This document shows, piece by piece, positions 1,225-62,914 of a stretch of 64,000 nucleotides of DNA. The translations under genes and the position numbers were made by a program. The DNA is from Octopus vulgaris. Its lineage: Eukaryota. Where the stretch lies: the NCBI GenBank assembly GCA_951406725.2, contig OX597814.1, positions 62,806,001 through 62,870,000 of the forward strand, read 5' to 3'. Under the pieces are notes generated by a model, which saw nothing but the letters and a program-made list of their open reading frames with translations, ran no database searches and had not been told where the DNA came from. Every line of letters begins with the position of its first letter. Position 1 is the first letter of the stretch.

Positions 1225-4200
1225 ATAGCGTGGTTTCGATCCTCAATAGTCAAATTTAACTTCAATATCAATTTTATCACAGTAAAACAATAGTTTTACT
1301 GTGACAAAAGAGTGACAGCAGTTACATTTGCCAGATGCCTTCGTCACTTGACACTTCTAATCTCTTCTATTTCACCAAAAGCTCGAATAGAGATAACAGG
1401 TACAACCAACGAAATCTATTGTTCTCAACAATATGTCTCTCCTTCTGACTAGTTTTGGATAGTTATAAAAACAAGAACTCTGTAAGCCAAAGTCCCCTCT
1501 GTGTCATGGCCTGTATGCCGAATAAAAGAAATTAGTGAGATCGACCATCCGTGTGTGTGAATGGACAACTAGGGTCATGGCCACAAGCAGGCAGTCACTA
1601 GAGACCAAACGGCCCGAGGAAAAAAAAGTTACAATCACCGACTATGCAAGACAACTTCCCTCGATTCTCTCACTTTCACTAACTCACTTTCTTTTCTTTG
1701 TAACATTACGATCTCTCTCTATATATATACTACTATGAGATCGTGTACACACCTCAGCCGAAATTAACACTTTTTAATTCGCATGCTTTTCCATTTACTA
1801 ATTATACATACCAACCCGTCGTGGTTTTGGATTTATATAAAGTAACGGTAAATAAAAATTTCTTTACAACTTCAATTATTGTTCATCTTTCATGTCTTAC
1901 TACATACCGTTCCAATAAATCTTTGCTGTTACAAACTGGTGACCCTCGACTTCAACTAAAAGCATTACCATTACCAACTGTTGAGCCTGAGTTAAAGAAT
2001 TCCAGCCTTCACCTTCGCATGAACAATTGTCACATCCATCGATTACACTGGTGACCCCGTCTAAAAGAATTTCTACTTCGTTCTAATGCTACATGCCGCT
2101 GAATTTTGCTGACTTCAAACTAAAAAACTACAGTCGTCATACCAACAGAGGAAAAGAATGATAACCTTTGTCACCACGGAGATGCGCCTTCGTTCCACTT
2201 GTTTCAGTTCGCGTAACAGAAAGCACTATACTGCAATGCAATCTACGATGTACTTCACTACAATGCAACCCAGCTGACACACAAAGAATTCGCTGACCAT
2301 GGAACCCCAATTTAACTGGAAGAAAATACGGAAGCCCGCACATCTAACCTCTTCGGCACACACATGCATTTCGTCTCGTTCCAACGTACAGACCCTGCTT
2401 TGTCCTCGAACTTTTGCACGTATATATGACTCTCAGCAACTCTTCTTCTTTGCATGCACATCTTTTCACTTTCAACTATTTTCAGCTAAATTTGTCATTT
2501 TTGCTTATTTTATTCTGTTCTATTTGCACTGTACACTTTCATTTGTTTGCAAGTTACAAATATTCTACGATGCACAGATTCTGCGACGACTCGTTTCACT
2601 AAAACAACTAAACTAATGTGCGTATCTTTTTGAATGTTCTATATTATTATTCATACTTTGCATGTACTTTTTTTTTCTTCGTTTACCTTGAAAATGTTTG
2701 TATTGTTACATACACACACGCATGCACCTTTCCTCAGCGCCTGGCCTTGCGCACGCATTTGCACACATTGTTCACACACACATATATGCTGACGCTGTCA
2801 CATTCATGCACCACACTATGCCTTTCTCACTTGTTTTTCATACTCCCTGCGCCCTTATAGACACAACTCGCCTCTGTAAGACCATAGGTCGGTCACGCAT
2901 ACATAGAGAAAACGCGCCAGCATGCCACACTTTTGCTCTTGCACGTTCAAGGCATTTAATACCGCAAGCATCGGCTGGCATATTCAGCACTGCCTTAATC
3001 ACTGGCATATTCAGCACTGTTTTGTTATCGCTGCACTAACATACTACCGCAGCCATAAGCCCTTTTGCACACACGCGCACGCGCACCTTTGTTATGCCTC
3101 TACAGCCTTGTTTTTCAACACGTCTGTGGCAGCTCAACTCTTTTCCCGACTCAATGCACGTCGAATGTTCACATGCTCTGCGCTCATTTTTAGAATAATT
3201 TCCCTCTGTTAGATCCCTGTTTAATCACGTAATGAATGGAGAAAATTACCTGACTCGCGCATCACTCCAGCATGCTACACTGTCGTTCTTGTTAACTTCA
3301 GAAATTAACCACGACAAAAGCGCCAGATGCATTTCTGAAAAATCTTCAAGGCATTTCACACATTGCAATCCTGCAGGAAAATCTTCGATATCATAGATTG
3401 AGAATACACTCACTCGCTCACCTGAGCTTATTTTACAGTGAATTTTGATACGTGCACCTGCACTCGTGTATACGCCCTCTCGTGCACTAACGCGCTAACT
3501 CATTTTCCCTACTGCCCAGTCACTGACTGCACATCCTGGAACGCAAAATGACACCGGTATTCAGACTCACTTGAATAAATATCTATCCCGTACACACTTC
3601 AATGATCCTCTCTCGTGATATGCAAATTTTTTCCTTAACCATGTATTTCTTTCTCTTCCTCTCTCGTTCGTTTCCTTTTCTCGGAACTTCTCTGGGCGGG
3701 GGTGGGGTGATGTCGTGGCTTCATGCAGGCATAGCGTGGATCCAATCCTCGATAGCGAAATTTCACTTAACATTTCAACAGCACTATTCTCCCTGTAAAA
3801 TAATAGTTTTTCTGTGAGTGACAGCAGTTACATTTGCCAAATGTAAGAAGCAATAGCAACACTTCGCTAAGCAGAATAATGTCCACTTGACACTTCTAAC
3901 TTCTTCTATTTCACCAAAAGTTAGAATAGAGATAACATGTACGACTAACGAAATCTATTGTTCTCAACAGTATGTCTCTGCTTTTGACTAGTTTTGGATA
4001 GTTATAAAAACAAGAACTCAGTAAGCCAAAGTCAGTTAGTGAGTCCCCTCTGTGTCATTGGCCTGTATGCCGAATAAAAGAAATTAGTTCGTGAGAGCGA
4101 CCATCAGTGAGTGTGAACGGGCAACTAAGGTCATGGCCACAAACAGGCAGCCACTAGAGACCAAACGGCCTGAGGAAAAGAGAAAGTTTCTCTGTAACAT

Positions 4201-4422
4201 TACCATATCACTCTCTATATACTACTATGATATTGTTTACAGACCCCAGTTGAAATTAACTCTTTTTACTTCGCATGCTTTTCCATTTACTAACTATGCA
4301 TACCAATCAGTCGTTGTTTTGGAGTTATATAAAGTAAAGTTATATAAAAATATCTTTACAACTTCAATTACTGTTCATCTTTCACATCTTACAACATACA
4401 GGTGCAATAAATCTTTGCCATT

Positions 4423-4425
<3 letters not shown>
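1225..4425 (+). mobile_element. Non-autonomous LTR retroelement (diverged LTRs about 1225-1933 and 3711-4425, PBS, PPT, no gag/pol ORF)
   Basis: Long direct repeats, e.g. AGTGACAGCAGTTACATTTGCCA, CACTAGAGACCAAACGGCC and AATAAATCTTTGC..TTACA. The 3' LTR runs TG...CA. PBS TGGTGACCCTCGAC at 1937; purine-rich tract GGGCGGGGGTGGGGTGA at 3694-3710. Confidence 0.85.
1937..1950 (+). promoter_or_regulatory. Primer-binding site complementary to tRNA-Trp 3' end (second copy at about 2048)
   Basis: TGGTGACCCTCGAC lies 3 nt after the LTR end TTACA. The eukaryotic tRNA-Trp 3' end predicts TGGTGACCCCGAC. Confidence 0.7.
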
Positions 4426-4487
<62 letters not shown>

Positions 4488-4582
4488 AACCTTACTTGGA
4501 AAAGGATGCGTGGCGTTCGATCATATAATAATTTAAATAATATATAAATATATGCATATATACATAAATATATGTACATACC

Positions 4583-4673
<91 letters not shown>

Positions 4674-5018
4674 CCATATATGGGTACAGGACATAAAAAA
4701 AAACGTTGAACACAATGAGAAACGAAAACATAAAAACAAAACGTAGAAACGAACATCTTTTCGAACAACGAAAAAAAAAAACCCCAGAGAAACGAGACAT
4801 GCAACAAAGAATATTCCTCTTCATCAGTTGTCCCTGTTTCATCTACTCCACGTTTTGGAGGCAAGAACAAGACGCGACTGAATTGAAACAGTTCTTCCCG
4901 CAAAGCAAATTAGATAAAATTTGGAATTTTTTGCGGAGGGTGAAAGTGGTAACAAGAACAGGACAGTGAGAACAAAACAGTATATGTATATGTATGTATG
5001 CATCGATCTATCTCTCTG

Positions 5019-21440: not shown

Positions 21441-22355
21441 ACGATCAAATCTTCTTTCATAAATCGGTGTGTGTGTATGTGTGTATTTGTGTGAGTGTGA
21501 TCACAATAATTAGAACGATATGCTTTAAACAAAGAAAATACAATTCAGTTGATCTACATATACACGGGTGAGACACAGTTGCAAATTTGGATCTGAGCAC
21601 AAGACCTATCAGTCTTGTATTGAAACCGAATGTACCCAAAGGCACCCATAAGGAGTTTCCGTGTTGGCTATAATGAAAATCATCCAGTGTTCTCTGGATA
21701 TTACTGACTTATATTGTGAGAGATAATTCACTTATACGCTATCTTTTGCTTATGTCTTAGATTGTTTGTAATAACCTCCACGACTACCTTGACACCCCAC
21801 CCGTTGCGCAAAAAGGGTGACAACGAACCAGAGACCAAAGTTGCTGGTAATGCCTTTGGATAAAACTCTTGTTTTGTACTGCGATGCAAACTTATGAGTT
21901 GTGCTTAACCTCAACTCATAAGCGTGCTATTGTTGCTTGACATCACGCCTCGATTTCGAGCTTAAAGATCAAACAAATGCTCCTGTATATCATGCTGTCT
22001 TCTTCAATAATTCCTCTAGGCTTAGTTAAAACCCCACTCCTTCGTTAGCGACGAAGAAGTGGGCTATTTCCCTCCTAAATGCTCCTGGATAAGAATCATA
22101 GGTAAAATCAAGCTCATGATTTGGTTACACATTTGTACAACATCATCATTTATTCCGCTAATTGTAACGTGTTGATTATTCCTTGTTGATGACAACGAAA
22201 GATAAAAGAAATAGACTTGTTGCTGTTCGAATTTTGACAGACACTATTTGTGTTTGTTTTGGTGCAAGATCTATTTGCCAGTGAAAATTTTATTTCTTCT
22301 GTACTTTTAAAGCACACATACCCTTAACATTTACTCTTTTGTTGTTGTTGTAATC

Positions 22356-23103
22356 TTGGAAGCAGATGCTGCTTTAGGTGAATTCAAAATCAAACTTCCC
22401 AATGACCTTTGCCTCGAAAGTAGTACTCTTTCAGATCTATGTAATTTTGAATATGCTAACCTCAAAAATAACTTCACAAACCCTGCGTGGCTTGCAAATA
22501 GAACCATTGTTACTCCAACAAATGAAACAGCACAATTTGTGAATGATTTTCTTTTGACCAAGATCCCTGGTGAGCTAAAAATATACAGAGGCGCAGATAT
22601 AGTTAATAATGAAACTCTGTACCCAATCGAGTTCATCAACAAACTAACACCATCAGGGTTTCCACCACACATTCTCAAACTGAAGAAAAAATGTATAATT
22701 TTTCTGAGAAATTTAAATGCTACTAATGGACATTGCAATGGCACACGCTACATCATTGTCAGTTTACATGATTATGTTATTGAGGCTGAGATTGCTTCTG
22801 GTCCTTATAGAGGATCAACTCTGTTAATCCCCAAAATACCACATGTATCTCAAGAAATGAAATTTCTATTCACATTTACACGCAATTTCCTGTCAAGCCA
22901 GCTTTTGCTTTGACGTGCAACAAGGCACAGGGACAGACTTTTGAACAAATTGGAATATATCTTCCGACACAATTCTTCTCATATGGTCAGCTGTATGCTG
23001 CATTATCTAGAGTTCGAAAGAAGGCTAATGTAAAAATTACTGGCTGAGAGAAATGTAAACAGTATGATTACTGACAATTGTGTCTACAAGGAGATAACTT
23101 TAA
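22356..23103 (+). pseudogene. Helitron RepHel PIF1-like helicase C-terminal pseudogene
   Basis: YPIEFIN.LTPSGFPPH.LKLK...LRNL....G.CNGTR..I...LIP.I. After a frameshift: QFPVKPAFALTCNKAQGQTF..IGIYLP..FFSYGQLY.ALSRV, then T.NCVYKEI. Confidence 0.9.
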
Positions 23104-36051: not shown

Positions 36052-37180
36052 ACAGGGTGGAGCGGAGAGGACGAACGTTTTTGAAAAATTCACAAAATCA
36101 TTTATTTTAGCTGCAAACAACTTTTATTGACATCAATGTGTTTGTATTGAATTAGCACTTCAAAATCAAATGTTGGAAACAACGTCCATCATGTGGTGTC
36201 CGTTTTCATTGATGCATTTCTGAAGGCGTTCTTGGAAGTTAGCTTCCACACTCTCCAGCATTGCTCTGTCAATTTGGGCAACTTCCACGTGAATAGTTTC
36301 CTTCATATTGGCCGATGTACGGGGCTTATGCGCATACACACATGACTTAAGGTTTCCCCACAAGAAATAATCACAGATGGGCAAATCAGGGGACCAAAGG
36401 GGCCAAGGAATGTCAGCAAACCTGGGAACGAGGTGGTCACCGAAGTAAGGGCAAAGAACGTCCATTACTACTCTGGCTGTATGGCCGTCGCCCCATCCTG
36501 CTGAAACCACATACGTCGAATAGGCATACGTTTTCGTCGTAATTCAGGCACAAAGAAATTATCATCTCGATGTAAATCTCGGAGTTCACAGTAACAGCAT
36601 TTCCAATATTGTCTTTAAAAAATTGAAGATCAATGACGGCAGCTTTTCCAACAGCACACCAGACCATCCCTTTTGGGTTGTGCAGTGGTCTTCCGCGTAG
36701 TTCACTCGGATTTTTGGGAGCCCAATAACGACGGTTCTGTTGATTCACCGTGCCATTGTGATGAAAATGAGCTTCATTACTCGTTAACAAAATGAGGTTA
36801 TCATTTGACACAAAAATTGCTTCCATCTGACGTGCAAAGTTAAGCTGCTGTGCATAGTCCCATGGTTTCAATTTTGCCCAATGGACAATTTGTACGGGTG
36901 GAAATTCCAGTCTTCATGCAAAATATGCCATACCGATCGATTACCGATGCCAAGTTCAGTGGAAAGCCTCCGAGCAGAGCGATTCGGACTCCGTATCAAA
37001 GCTTATCTGACGCGTTCCTCATTTTCCGTAATGTTCGTGACGCTGCCACCAGTCTCCTATTCATTTGCGTGCCTCGTGTACGAAGTGCATTCACCCAACG
37101 TAAGATTGTATTACGGGTGGAAACAGCCTGATTTCAGTAAATGTTGAAGTGACGCCTAGACTCACGATGTGAGACTCACT
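36052..37180 (-). mobile_element. Tc1/mariner rosa-type (DD41D) transposon with pseudogenised transposase (about 36166-37147)
   Basis: SNEAHF..NG.VN.QN.RYW...NP......LH.PK..VWC, then WFQQDGAT(A)HTAR...WPLWSPDLPICDYFLWG. After repairing one frameshift there are 41 residues between the second and third D. CAGGGTG terminus at 36053. Confidence 0.9.
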
Positions 37181-58613: not shown

Positions 58614-59050
58614 AACTACATGACATACGTGAGGTTGGAAGAAAAACGCTTTATTAAAATGTTCAAACCTGTTCTCAAAGGAAATAACAACTATAATATA
58701 ACAACCAGTTAATGATGTGGATTAAAAGATATCTCTAGCATATAAATATAAACAAGTTACAGAATATCGGTACGCCTGTCAAACCGTTATGTTTAAGCTG
58801 CGTGCAGATTGGTAAAAATACAAAAAAAAAAAATTCTAAAAATTCAGTTTGTTGGAGCGTTCTAAGAGGTACCAAAGTTGACAAGAACTCAACTGTCGGT
58901 TAAACACATTTGAAATTTGATGATTAGACTATGTATGAAAGCGCTAATTTAACTTTATGAGCATTACAAAATATTTTTTAACGTTAAACTAGTATAATGA
59001 AAAACGTGAAAAGCACTCCATGTTTTAACTTTATTCAATCGATATATGTA

Positions 59051-59108
<58 letters not shown>

Positions 59109-59112
<4 letters not shown>

Positions 59113-60154
59113 ATATTTCGGAATGGTCATATTGCCAGTTTAGCCAATAAAAACACACGCACTATATATTTGGTGTTATTTTGCTTCAGTGATATTTATT
59201 TTTTACATTAATCTTAATCTTATTTCGGCCAAAGTTCTTTCGTCACACTCCTGTGACCGCATCAGTGGTCCTTTGTTTTCTTCTCACTTACTTGTGTCTC
59301 TCCTTACTAACCGTCAGCCATTTTGTATTTCTATTGTATGTCTTCATTTGCGCATGCTTATATCTCTATGTGCGTCTATGTTTATTTAGTGTGTGTGTGG
59401 GGGGGATGTCTGTAATATTTGTATCTTCTGGTTATATACATTCTTGTAATTTGTATTTTGTTTTTGTTGTTGTTGCTTTTGTTCTAATTTTGTTCATGTG
59501 TTTACATCCACCCATTATTATCATTACATATGCTTGTATGTATGTATAACAACAATATTAGTAATAATAATAATAAATCTAATCGAGAAAAAAAAAAAAA
59601 AAAGAATATACATATACATATATATATATATATACATACACATACATATACATATATATATATACATATATACACACATATATACACATATACATATACA
59701 TATATATACACATATACATACACATAGATATTCATTTCTATTTCTTTAATTACCTGTGTATTTATTATGTTTGCAGGATCCACTATTGTCATATGTTGTG
59801 GTGTGCGCTATTGCTCCATTCTAGTTTTCTATTCAGGCTAGGTTTATTTTCTATTATATGTGTAGCTTCTGTAATTTGTCTAATTGTTGCATCTGTTCTA
59901 TGTGTGGACAATATCTTAATCTCTATGTTATTGATTGATCCCCCGTGTTCTTGTTCGGCGTGTTGGTACAGAATCGATGAGCTTTTACCTTCCTTGAGTT
60001 GTCTCCAATGTTCATTCACCCGCTCACCAATGCTTCTTGCAGTTTCCCCTACGTATGTTACTGTCTTGTTACTGCATCGTCCCTCTATACATCTTATACT
60101 ATAGCCCACATTTCTGGCTTTACAGTTCGTTTGTGGGCTAAATCTACATACAGT
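59109..60154 (-). mobile_element. 5'-truncated Penelope-like element: GIY-YIG C-terminus, 3' UTR, hammerhead-like motif and terminus
   Basis: [19 protein letters not shown]...[16 protein letters not shown]...SILYQH..QEH...[18 protein letters not shown] matches the PLE GIY-YIG pattern. The terminus at 59109-59148 abuts (TA)n and has a perfect inverted copy at 60650-60689. Confidence 0.88.
59227..59271 (-). ncRNA. Variant minimal hammerhead ribozyme-like motif in PLE terminus
   Basis: Minus strand reads GGACCA-CTGATGCG-GTCACA(GGAG)TGTGAC-GAAAGAACTT-TGGCC. Stem II is clear, but the core deviates (CTGATGC rather than CTGANGA). Confidence 0.45.
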
Positions 60155-60649
60155 GCTGGATTTCTCTTTAGTCTTCAAGTTGAATGTCCATACAAATGTT
60201 GGGCCTCGTTGCTTAGTTTTGTACACAGGACACTGATAAATATTCTTTGTTTCTTGTCTATCTACTGGAATAGCTTTGAGGAAAACAATTGGCAACATAG
60301 GTGTGAGTTCTTTCAATAGAGACTCCCCAATCATCCCAGTTTGTGTGTCCCATCTGGCTCCTTCCATAAAAAGGCCATGTATAAATGCTCCTTCCCTAGG
60401 AGGTCCAGCCATGTCATCACGACATTTCTTAGTGACATCACATTGAATACACATTTTATCTAGAGGCCATTCATTTTTACGAGCCATCTGTTGCATAATT
60501 GCAGTAAGAAAAGATTGGGGGTTAAAGAATCCAGCCAACCAAACAGCAGCTGGTAGCTGAAAATCAGAAACCCAACCTTCTAGTTCTTTAACACGTTGGA
60601 TTAGATCTGCATACCAAGCAGTCAAAGTATATAAAGAAGGGTATGCACG
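59789..60649 (-). CDS. Chimeric open reading frame: axonemal dynein heavy chain C-terminal domain fused in frame to a Penelope-like GIY-YIG endonuclease (expression unknown)
   Basis: Part of ORF 59789..60787, with no stop across both segments. The ORF-track start is a GTG next to a (TA)n tract; the first in-frame ATG is at 60496 (MQQMARK..., 235 aa to the stop). Confidence 0.6.
60155..60649 (-). pseudogene. Processed fragment of an outer-arm (beta-type, DNAH9/11/17-like) dynein heavy chain C-terminal domain
   Basis: [50 protein letters not shown]...CDVTKK...[18 protein letters not shown]...LKEL.P..P...[32 protein letters not shown] is diagnostic of this family. The usual terminal W.LAGVALLL motif is missing, and no introns are present. 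Confidence 0.9.
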
Positions 60650-60746
60650 ATTGGCTAAACTGGCAATATGACCATTCCGAAATATAACAATATCTGTTTC
60701 AACACACGACTTCACATAAAAAATCTTGCACAACAAATATTTAAAC

Positions 60747-60786
<40 letters not shown>

Positions 60787-60811
60787 CATGCTGGACCGCT
60801 GAAATTTACAA

Positions 60812-60980
60812 GTTGTTTTCATTCTCTCTCTGTGTTTATTTTCCCTTATTACTTTCTGCTGAAGAGCGTAGGCTCAAAACGTATATGATATTTTCATTTT
60901 TCGCAAGGGTCAAACTAATACACTTACTTGTTGTTCATATATCTGTCTTCGACTTTTGTTTTTCCTATAGATTTCAACTA
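60812..60980 (+). mobile_element. PLE terminal fragment with degenerate hammerhead, inverted relative to 61055-61217
   Basis: CTGAAGAGCGTAGGCTCAAAACGTA at 60859-60883. The downstream ...AAACTAATACAC...TGTCTTCG.CTTTTGTTTTT is the reverse complement of 61060-61217 and ends at (TA)n. Confidence 0.7.
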
Positions 60981-61054
60981 TATATATATATACACAGATA
61001 GATAAACATATATCATATATGATATATGTGTGTGTGTATAGGTAGATAACTAGA

Positions 61055-62165
61055 TAGATGAAATTTACAGAAAAAAACAAAAGACGAAGACAGGTGTATA
61101 AATAACAAACAGGTGTATTAGTTTAACGCTCGGGAAGGTGAGAAAATCTTTTACGTCTCGAGCCTACGCTCTTTAACAGAAAGTACCACAAGGAAATAAA
61201 CAGAGAGAGAATAAAAGAAAAAAACTTTTGGCGCTAGAGGTCAATCATGGCGGCTGGCTGGACAAAGGTAGTTAGACAGGAGAGCTCGGAAGAAGGGGAG
61301 ATAATAAAGTATTGTTGTGTGCAGGGTAGTGTGATGTAGTGTGGGGGTGTGTGGTGTGGTTTGGCACGATGTGGAGTGGTGGTGTTTGGTGTGGTGTGGC
61401 GGTGTTGGGTTATGGGGATGCGAGAGTGGGGTGTGGGGATGTGACAGTAGGGTGTAGGTTTAGGTTAGGGGTGCGGATGTGGGGGTAGGAGTGGGATGTG
61501 TAAGGGTGGATGTGAATGGAGGGGGTATCGATGAAGGTAGAAAGTAGGTAAGAGTGAAGAGAGAAAGTAGGTGTCAGGGCAAGTGAGGAGAGGTGGGCAG
61601 GAGAGAAGAGAATCGTGTGATGAAGAGAGGAGAGGTGGGGAGTCAGATGAAGAGGAGAGGGGAGTTGAGCCCATGTGGCGCAAAGGAGCGGAGAGAGAGG
61701 AGATTAATTCCTATTCACGGCGAAGGTGGGAGTCGGGATGGCCCCTGTGCAAATACAATCCGAACACAGACAGGTGTTGTAATGAATGACCGGTAGATTC
61801 GAAATGGTGCGAGACCGGGGTGTCATTGCCAAGTCTAATGTCTCGGAGGTGCTTCCGCGAAACGGTCAGCCAAACGGCGTCTCGTTTGACCGATGTACAG
61901 AAGATAGAAGAGCAGGAGATGCAGTAAATGATGTTGCTGGAAGTGAAAGAAAAGAAGCCAGTGATATGATAGGGACGATGATGGGTTCCTGTGAGGATGG
62001 TGGTTTTGGAGAAGTTGCGGGTGTGTATTTTGGAGAGACCGGAGCGAATGGTAGCGCGTTTAAAGCAGTAGGAATTAGTACGGAGTATGGGTGGGATGGC
62101 TGAAGCAAAGTGGAGAGTGGGGCGGAAATGGAAAGTATTTGATACTTACTGGAAGGTATTTGACC
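61055..62165 (-). mobile_element. Degraded Penelope-like element 3' part (GIY-YIG pseudogene about 61660-61990, C/T-rich UTR, terminus)
   Basis: Minus-strand translation with frameshifts: HRPYHITGFFSFTSSNIIYCISCS / LYIGQTRRRLADRF / HLRDIRLGNDTPVSHHF.STGHS...APHGLN. The terminus contains AAGAGCGTAGGCTCGAGACGT. Confidence 0.85.
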
Positions 62166-62914
62166 TAAATGGCATTCGAACACCAGGTCATCTTAAAACA
62201 AGCCAAGAATTTTTCTCTTTGTTTAGATGATTCAGCAAGTCTTCAATCTATCTATGTTTTGTCGTTATACATAACTCCTTCCTCTCTACTAACATTTCAA
62301 AATCTAGTGGTAATTTGCGACACAGTGTATCTTGTTGTCTTCAACAAGCCTCAACAATACAGAAAGGTATCATACTTCATTTCATCAACAGATTTACAAT
62401 TCTTTGATGCTTACTGCTAGTACAGCTCTCCTTCCCTGTTGCCTGTGTAGTACTAGTCGGATACCAGCTTAAAAGTGTGACTTAGTTTGCAAATAATACA
62501 ATTTTTCTTAAACTCCTTCCTTTTTGCCTGTAGTTTATTGTGTCTATAAAGATCAAGGTGTGAGCCTGTTCTCTATTTTTTTCAGTTGATCGACTATGGC
62601 TCGATTGATTAAATGTGATTAAACTATGGAACTAGAACCTCCCAACATTTATCGGAAACATGTGTAACTCTTGAATGTATAAAATCAATTATCTGTGTGT
62701 ATATTGCATATGACCCTGTATCAACATACCAATTTCATTTCATAACCATACTCTGAATTTACAAGTTTGGCTGGTGACAGCATGTTGAGATCAGATTACC
62801 CGGACTCCTACATCTATCACTAGACATATTTCTTAGCCTGGTATATCTTCATCTACACAGTATTTATGAAGTGTTTTTCTCTTGAACTGTTAATCCCCTT
62901 TTATTTTGAAATGT

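Follow-up and report, generated by a model that had tools for sequence, protein, structure and literature searches.

Endonuclease-bearing Penelope-like elements (EN+ PLEs) of the Neptune/Nematis type (Craig et al. 2021, PMC8557442) encode the reverse transcriptase (RT) together with a GIY-YIG endonuclease at the C-terminus in a single ORF, with a CX2-5CxxC linker and a CCHH motif; they form partial tandems, carry an inverted 5'-truncated copy and a short tail, and are found in (TA)n targets. How PLE tandem and inverted structures are formed is named as an open question in PMC8557442 and PMC3846280. The protein of an anole PLE (Poseidon clade) is reported to cut and extend both strands in vitro, and to initiate internally near the pLTR-ORF junction (PMC11167929). 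Host sequence has been found between the terminal repeats of an EN+ PLE in Adineta vaga, where an entire NRPS gene, introns included, is enclosed by the direct pLTRs of a Penelope element that shows a target-site duplication, and where the Penelope ORFs are 1,300-1,500 aa long with Asn-rich inserts (Arkhipova et al. 2013, PMC3846280). Capture of host genes by endonuclease-bearing PLEs, for which an earlier note on the DNA analysed here had called the formation of host-gene retrocopies little documented, is thus already in print.

Three other processes produce comparable structures. In L1 twin priming two RT-extended ends are joined by microhomology, of the kind seen in end joining, at the inversion junction, and in some insertions genomic DNA close by (PMC11702581) or another RNA (PMC11702581, PMC13174262) has served as template for additional sequence; L1 primes on poly(A) and its second priming site is variable. 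Insertions made at DNA breaks by MMBIR or alternative end joining, as described in yeast (PMC11724301), are copy-paste patches bounded by short microhomologies, whose local or distant donor stays intact. Processed pseudogenes and retrogenes are second, intron-free copies of coding sequence.

The window studied here is a stretch of 64,000 nucleotides of the Octopus vulgaris genome (G000:C1:62,806,001-62,870,000). Within (TA)n it holds, at 59,042-60,793, an insertion, recent and single-copy, of a Neptune-like Penelope element, composed of two head-to-head arms with a patch of dynein coding sequence between them. Read directly on the minus strand, a (TA)n run is followed by the inverted PLE arm, the dynein coding stretch, the coding sequence of the PLE endonuclease, the UTR, the terminus and a second (TA)n run (Table 1).

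Table 1. Features of the insertion, in positions of the window.
Feature	Position	Strand	Evidence
(TA)n target run, flank outside inverted arm	60751..60793	.	direct reading
Inverted PLE arm, 103 bp	60650..60752	+	100% identity to many copies
GCCAAT, 6-nt microhomology, inverted arm / dynein exon	60650..60655	-	three-way comparison
502-bp dynein copy, internal part of the terminal exon of a DNAH17/DNAH9-like outer-arm gene	60154..60655	-	502/502 identity, exon geometry, Pfam Dynein_C, PDB sequence matches
GCA, 3-nt microhomology, dynein / PLE	60154..60156	-	comparison; frame kept, likely by chance
End of PLE 3' ORF: second half of CX4CX2C linker, GIY-YIG with CCHH, stop	59789..60156	-	Pfam, copies at 100% identity
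PLE 3' UTR / pseudo-LTR, microsatellites inside	59131..59788	-	mapping onto full-length copy L068
Hammerhead-like motif, non-canonical, putative	59227..59272 (approx.)	-	fold
22-nt tail = first 22 nt of the ORF; commonest arm end of the family	59109..59130	-	mapping to L068
(TA)n target run, opposite side	59042..59108	.	direct reading

Much of this architecture had been recognised in the earlier note. The 40-bp inverted repeat (59109-59148 and 60650-60689) is indeed perfect and not extendable, and no stop or frameshift interrupts the fusion, the minus-strand frame 60805-59792 being open over 338 codons up to the stop at 59791-59789. The in-frame GIY-YIG domain reported upstream of that stop is matched by Pfam on 59792-60154 (E 0.0012, below the curated cut-off). 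An inverted copy of the element's end is present at 60650-60689 as described, but the arm is longer than that, and the 40 bp are only the stretch common to both arms: the whole inverted arm consists of the last 18 nt upstream of the ORF plus the ORF's first 85 nt (reference 4581-4683). The sequence called the PLE terminus is likewise present on both arms but is really the ORF start, both arms ending inside its first codons. The exact combination of (TA)3 and element end seen in the window is common to 232 genome sites. The PLE 3' part is 1,048 bp long, covers reference 3563-4620 and is 99.5% identical to the closest sisters that were fetched. As for the hammerhead-like motif, stems I and II fold but stem III is absent (z -1.45), and the core reads CUGAUGC, which departs from the canonical CUGAnGA; an Rfam scan of 59000-60900 found no hammerhead and gave only microsatellite-driven miRNA matches.

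The family was characterised from a full-length copy (L068), a unit of 4,598 nt whose RT and GIY-YIG, the latter at the C-terminus, share one ORF of 1,309 aa (L068:2013-5939, minus strand). Its linker is C-x4-C-x2-C, of which the window copy retains just the last Cys, and the CCHH motif, read from the translation, places two Cys between VYSI and YVGET and two His after them. Pfam on the whole open frame (1,312 aa) gave no match, while sub-regions matched RVT_1 (E 5.8e-4) and GIY-YIG (E 9.2e-4), both under the curated cut-offs. The family shows pseudo-LTRs from partial tandems, an inverted truncated copy and a short tail. By the features given for the Neptune/Nematis type in PMC8557442, the element is classed from its sequence as a Neptune-like EN+ PLE; from the elements described there it differs in its full-length ORF of 1,309 aa with an Asn-rich block and, in the window copy, in the host exon piece at the inversion point. 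The Asn-rich block (Asn 33% over residues 245-510) is like the inserts of rotifer Penelope ORFs, which are reported in PMC3846280 as unseen in other retrotransposons; the ORFs themselves are also similar in length to that of L068. This is a very young and abundant family: among 40 copies scored of 1554 candidates, 39 besides the window's are 100% identical over the endonuclease region, and besides the 232 sites with the exact end at ORF +85, 1,572 carry an end at +82, with more than 1,800 similar ends overall. A tiny two-arm insertion of the same family (L191, G000:C1:62,801,787) lies about 4 kb before the start of the window.

In the family, 157 insertion ends were surveyed in list order on contigs C1-C7 (90 from the set of 232 and 67 from that of 1,572), with 1.5-6 kb of DNA each. 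An exact-word script classed 96 of them as two-arm, head-to-head insertions, a form that is common in the family. The other 61 ends, outside the automatic classes, are too long for the stretch examined, single-arm or degenerate, and long captures could hide among them; the window's own locus and L154 belong to these 61, and both were scored by hand. At the centres of the 96 insertions, 47 have at least 2 nt of microhomology (about 18% would be expected by a rough formula), 15 are blunt or share 1 nt, 28 have 1-29 extra bases and 6 have at least 30, some of these bases being mere divergence from the reference set used. Many copies are fold-backs whose arms meet at one reference position, near-perfect at the centre, and in many others, including the window, the opposite arm extends far past the first; since it does so, a second cDNA would be needed. 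Throughout the family (L074-L235) the end of one arm falls at ORF +76 to +86 and that of its opposite at about +22/26; of 100 opposite arm ends identified, 87 aligned to +26, with the last 4 nt common to (TA)n. These ends suggest two fixed, strand-specific priming sites in the ORF start, and the arm structure fits the cutting and extension of both strands and the internal initiation reported in vitro (PMC11167929). It was proposed before that in the window the RT had switched onto the element's own terminus; the inverted arm is best explained as a second cDNA primed by the target, the form that is usual in the family.

Of the 97 two-arm insertions other than the window's (96 from the script and L154), three have foreign patches of at least 50 nt between the arms. 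The patch of L131 is an inverted copy of about 120 nt of a microsatellite-like flank 0.1-0.2 kb away; that of L212 (174 nt) comes from flank 0.2-0.4 kb away (95%), with 6 nt common at the left junction; and in L154 a single further site in the genome, at a distance of 6.8 kb, matches 71 of the 81 nt (96%). All three donors are thus local to their own insertion sites (0.1-6.8 kb), and none is recognisable as a known gene. Several other gaps were considered as captures and rejected. In L138 the gap is due to a later insertion, a 989-bp LINE-like 3' fragment that has a short tandem tail, lies inside one young arm at about 480-1467 counted from the oriented start and shows a short target duplication; L099, L134, L137 and L153 hold the UTR of a diverged subfamily; and L186, L188, L147, L202, L205 and L225 are single arms running into flank, with no second arm in the DNA examined. 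One family insertion (L095, G000:C2:3.36 Mb) lies about 200 bp from a putative bHLH-PAS (single-minded-like) exon.

The foreign piece in the window is the C-terminal part of an outer-arm dynein heavy chain, as previously stated, and Pfam finds Dynein_C on 60155-60649 (E 1.2e-60); its extent, however, is 502 bp, so that it overlaps the PLE by 6 and 3 nt. A parental locus had been predicted and it exists. Three places in the genome match the piece, namely the window, C1:69,170,259-69,170,760 (502/502) and a paralog of 78% identity at 207.9 Mb, and the donor lies 6.30 Mb from the insertion on the same contig. A random site would fall within 6.3 Mb of the donor with a chance of 0.45%, and on the same contig with a chance of 8%, an argument from distance that depends on correct scaffolding and on a single event. 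Further copies of the chimera, for which a search had been proposed, are absent from the genome: there are only these three dynein matches, and a 20-nt word at the GCCAAT (5') junction occurs once. The search for an empty site or an alternative haplotype found no second allele, and the right flank is a repeat whose other copies reach at most 86% over its length. The reading of the locus as a young PLE insertion carrying a captured host fragment is upheld by the identity of both parts to their relatives, from which the capture appears to be very recent.

The parent gene is spliced. Its terminal coding exon of 618 nt is preceded by a splice acceptor whose position agrees with that in the paralog; about 39 kb further upstream, beyond an intron of about 39 kb, comes an exon that matches the penultimate one of the paralog. 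Among solved (PDB) chains, the best matches of the exon product are DNAH17 and DNAH9 / outer-arm beta chains. The paralog itself (L003, G000:C1:207.93 Mb) is a second outer-arm beta-type dynein on the same contig, 78% identical and with the same terminal exon boundary. The copied piece starts 75 nt into the terminal exon and stops 41 nt short of the coding end. Because it lies wholly inside this single exon, its intron-free state says nothing about the template, and the earlier argument that it points to an mRNA does not hold, no intron having been lost. The argument from sense orientation was also set aside as uninformative, since the RT of either arm could have jumped. The fragment ends before the coding end and reaches neither the mRNA 3' end nor a poly(A); compared with a processed pseudogene, it has no spliced junction, no poly(A) and no 3' UTR, and is an internal fragment only. 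The capture resembles a twin-primed L1 insertion with a templated patch, set in an EN+ PLE insertion, and is not shown to be a retrocopy. Compared with L1, the PLE of the window seems to prime at two fixed internal sites, and there is a sequence overlap between its arms, for which two RNAs or a fold-back would be required; compared with MMBIR or alternative end joining, the break ends are here likely to be retrotransposon cDNAs. The capture of Adineta vaga differs from this one, which is a 0.5-kb internal exon piece, bounded by microhomology, placed at the centre of an inverted pair and traced to a donor in cis.

We consider it most likely, with a probability of roughly 0.55, that chromosomal DNA in cis served as template for the dynein patch during closure of the gap between the arms. 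The GIY-YIG endonuclease would cut both strands of the (TA)n run, and from each 3' end a cDNA would be primed internally at one of two fixed sites among the first ORF codons (+22/26 and +85), one cDNA reaching 103 nt and the other about 1,050 nt. A free end would then pair through microhomology with the dynein locus, which lies 6.3 Mb away and may have been opened by transcription, would be extended by about 500 nt by the RT or by a host repair polymerase, and would join the other arm via the second microhomology. The locus has the marks of a templated insertion, a donor intact elsewhere (502/502) and microhomology at both ends (6 and 3 nt), and these, together with the low chance of so close a donor (0.45%) and the local origin of the three other patches (3/3), support copying in cis. 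Against it count the comparison patches themselves, of which there are only three, all of them short, at 81-174 nt, with donors no more than 7 kb off and none with a megabase reach. A coding donor, too, is much more to be expected from RNA than from DNA taken at random, although the find owes its selection to being coding; that no junction-spanning contig is listed in four public runs is weak evidence against it. By a rough weighing on our own assumptions, the coding donor favours RNA by perhaps 15:1 and the proximity of 6.3 Mb favours a template in cis over a diffusible mRNA by perhaps 40-60:1, while the containment in one exon and the orientation of the patch are about neutral as to the type of template.

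An RNA template of any kind is on balance the less likely course. At GCA the PLE RT may have left its own RNA for a mature dynein mRNA in trans, of which it copied 502 nt, and GCCAAT may have served for the join to the second arm; this is the proposal of the earlier note, amended for that arm. The whole patch is exonic, lies near the mRNA 3' end and has the same sense as the 3' arm, and insertions made from two transcripts with microhomology are described for L1 in PMC11702581 and PMC13174262. Yet no splice junction is crossed, so that there is no positive mark of RNA, the proximity of the donor (0.45%) is unexpected for a diffusible mRNA, none of the three other patches comes from a distant transcript, and orientation would be uninformative if both ends were extended by the RT; we therefore regard this course as improbable. 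Both the proximity in cis and the exonic donor would be accounted for if the RT had copied nascent, chromatin-tethered dynein RNA or an R-loop near the insertion, but the nascent RNA of the parent gene is mostly intron (the last one of 39 kb) and the local patches show that DNA templates are enough in the family, which leaves it a decidedly small likelihood.

There is little probability in two further explanations, which place the patch outside retrotransposition or outside the genome. The palindromic centre of an ordinary two-arm insertion could have broken later and been repaired with an unrelated templated insertion; many copies are near-perfect fold-backs at the centre, and distant templated insertions with microhomology are known at DNA breaks (PMC11724301), but here arms and patch are equally young (99.5-100%), which leaves little time for a second event, and short inverted arms like the window's are common without any patch. 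The other possibility is a chimera of assembly or library. It is suggested by the 100% identity to the parent and by the contigs of four public runs, in each of which one contig covers 60154-60655 and continues on both sides into other sequence as the parent would, unbroken through both junction positions; no piece bridging a junction was found among the contig pieces listed, which cannot show its absence. Contigs drop rare variants, 7,470 pieces lie outside those listed, two of the four runs are covered to 76-80%, and none of the four is known to come from the assembled individual, so the lack of a listed bridging contig fits a private or rare allele as well as an artefact. A chimera would moreover need two joins, each with microhomology, inside an insertion with the family's usual outer ends in (TA)n; these ends and the double microhomology argue for a biological event.

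The fusion of dynein and nuclease is probably inert, an evolutionary dead end that yields no working protein, as judged from its sequence. The first in-frame ATG, at 60496, lies inside the dynein piece and leaves 235 aa to the stop; the fused Dynein_C has lost about the first 120 profile positions and the last 13 residues, the fused nuclease is without most of its zinc-finger linker, and the window copy is without the RT. The inverted arm supplies just 18 nt of upstream sequence, in antisense, and the fusion seems to have no start or promoter of its own. For this reason, and because it is single-copy and has a clipped zinc finger, it is probably dead on arrival. The in-frame join is likely due to chance (1 in 3), and patch and parent show zero divergence, hence no signal of selection.

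Around the insertion, a search for a host gene among the 113 open frames of at least 75 aa in the window gave only pieces of a Pif1/UvrD helicase and weak matches. The broken pieces of Pif1/UvrD-type helicase (22311-23044, plus strand) are presumably Helitron-derived. An open frame at 36440-36913 (minus strand) has no Pfam match and is, we assume, similar to a Tc1/mariner transposase. At 61650-62200 and 60800-61300, inspection by eye suggests the remains of an older GIY-YIG with frameshifts, from a different PLE-like family, together with an inverted pair of terminal segments that have diverged; one of its frames gave no match to Pfam GIY-YIG.

In the literature covered, which consisted of papers open without subscription, in their main text, we found neither host patches templated at the inversion centres of PLEs nor two fixed priming sites reported. 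A warning to be taken from the locus is that an intron-free host fragment in a retroelement is not by itself a retrocopy. With more than 1,800 near-identical ends and a few percent of mappable centre patches, twin priming against fold-back, and DNA against RNA template, are testable from one genome, and the fixed priming sites and the family-wide mechanism are more useful than the fusion itself. As a tentative generalisation, which we hold to be somewhat doubtful, EN+ PLEs would cut both target strands and prime two cDNAs at two fixed sites in the ORF start, and the gap left open would regularly take host sequence from anywhere contacted on the chromosome, up to megabases away. If this is true, about 50 such patches would be expected in the family (3/97 scaled to 1,800 ends), and EN+ PLEs would be a source of exon shuffling onto a GIY-YIG nuclease, of which the dynein fusion would be a fresh example.
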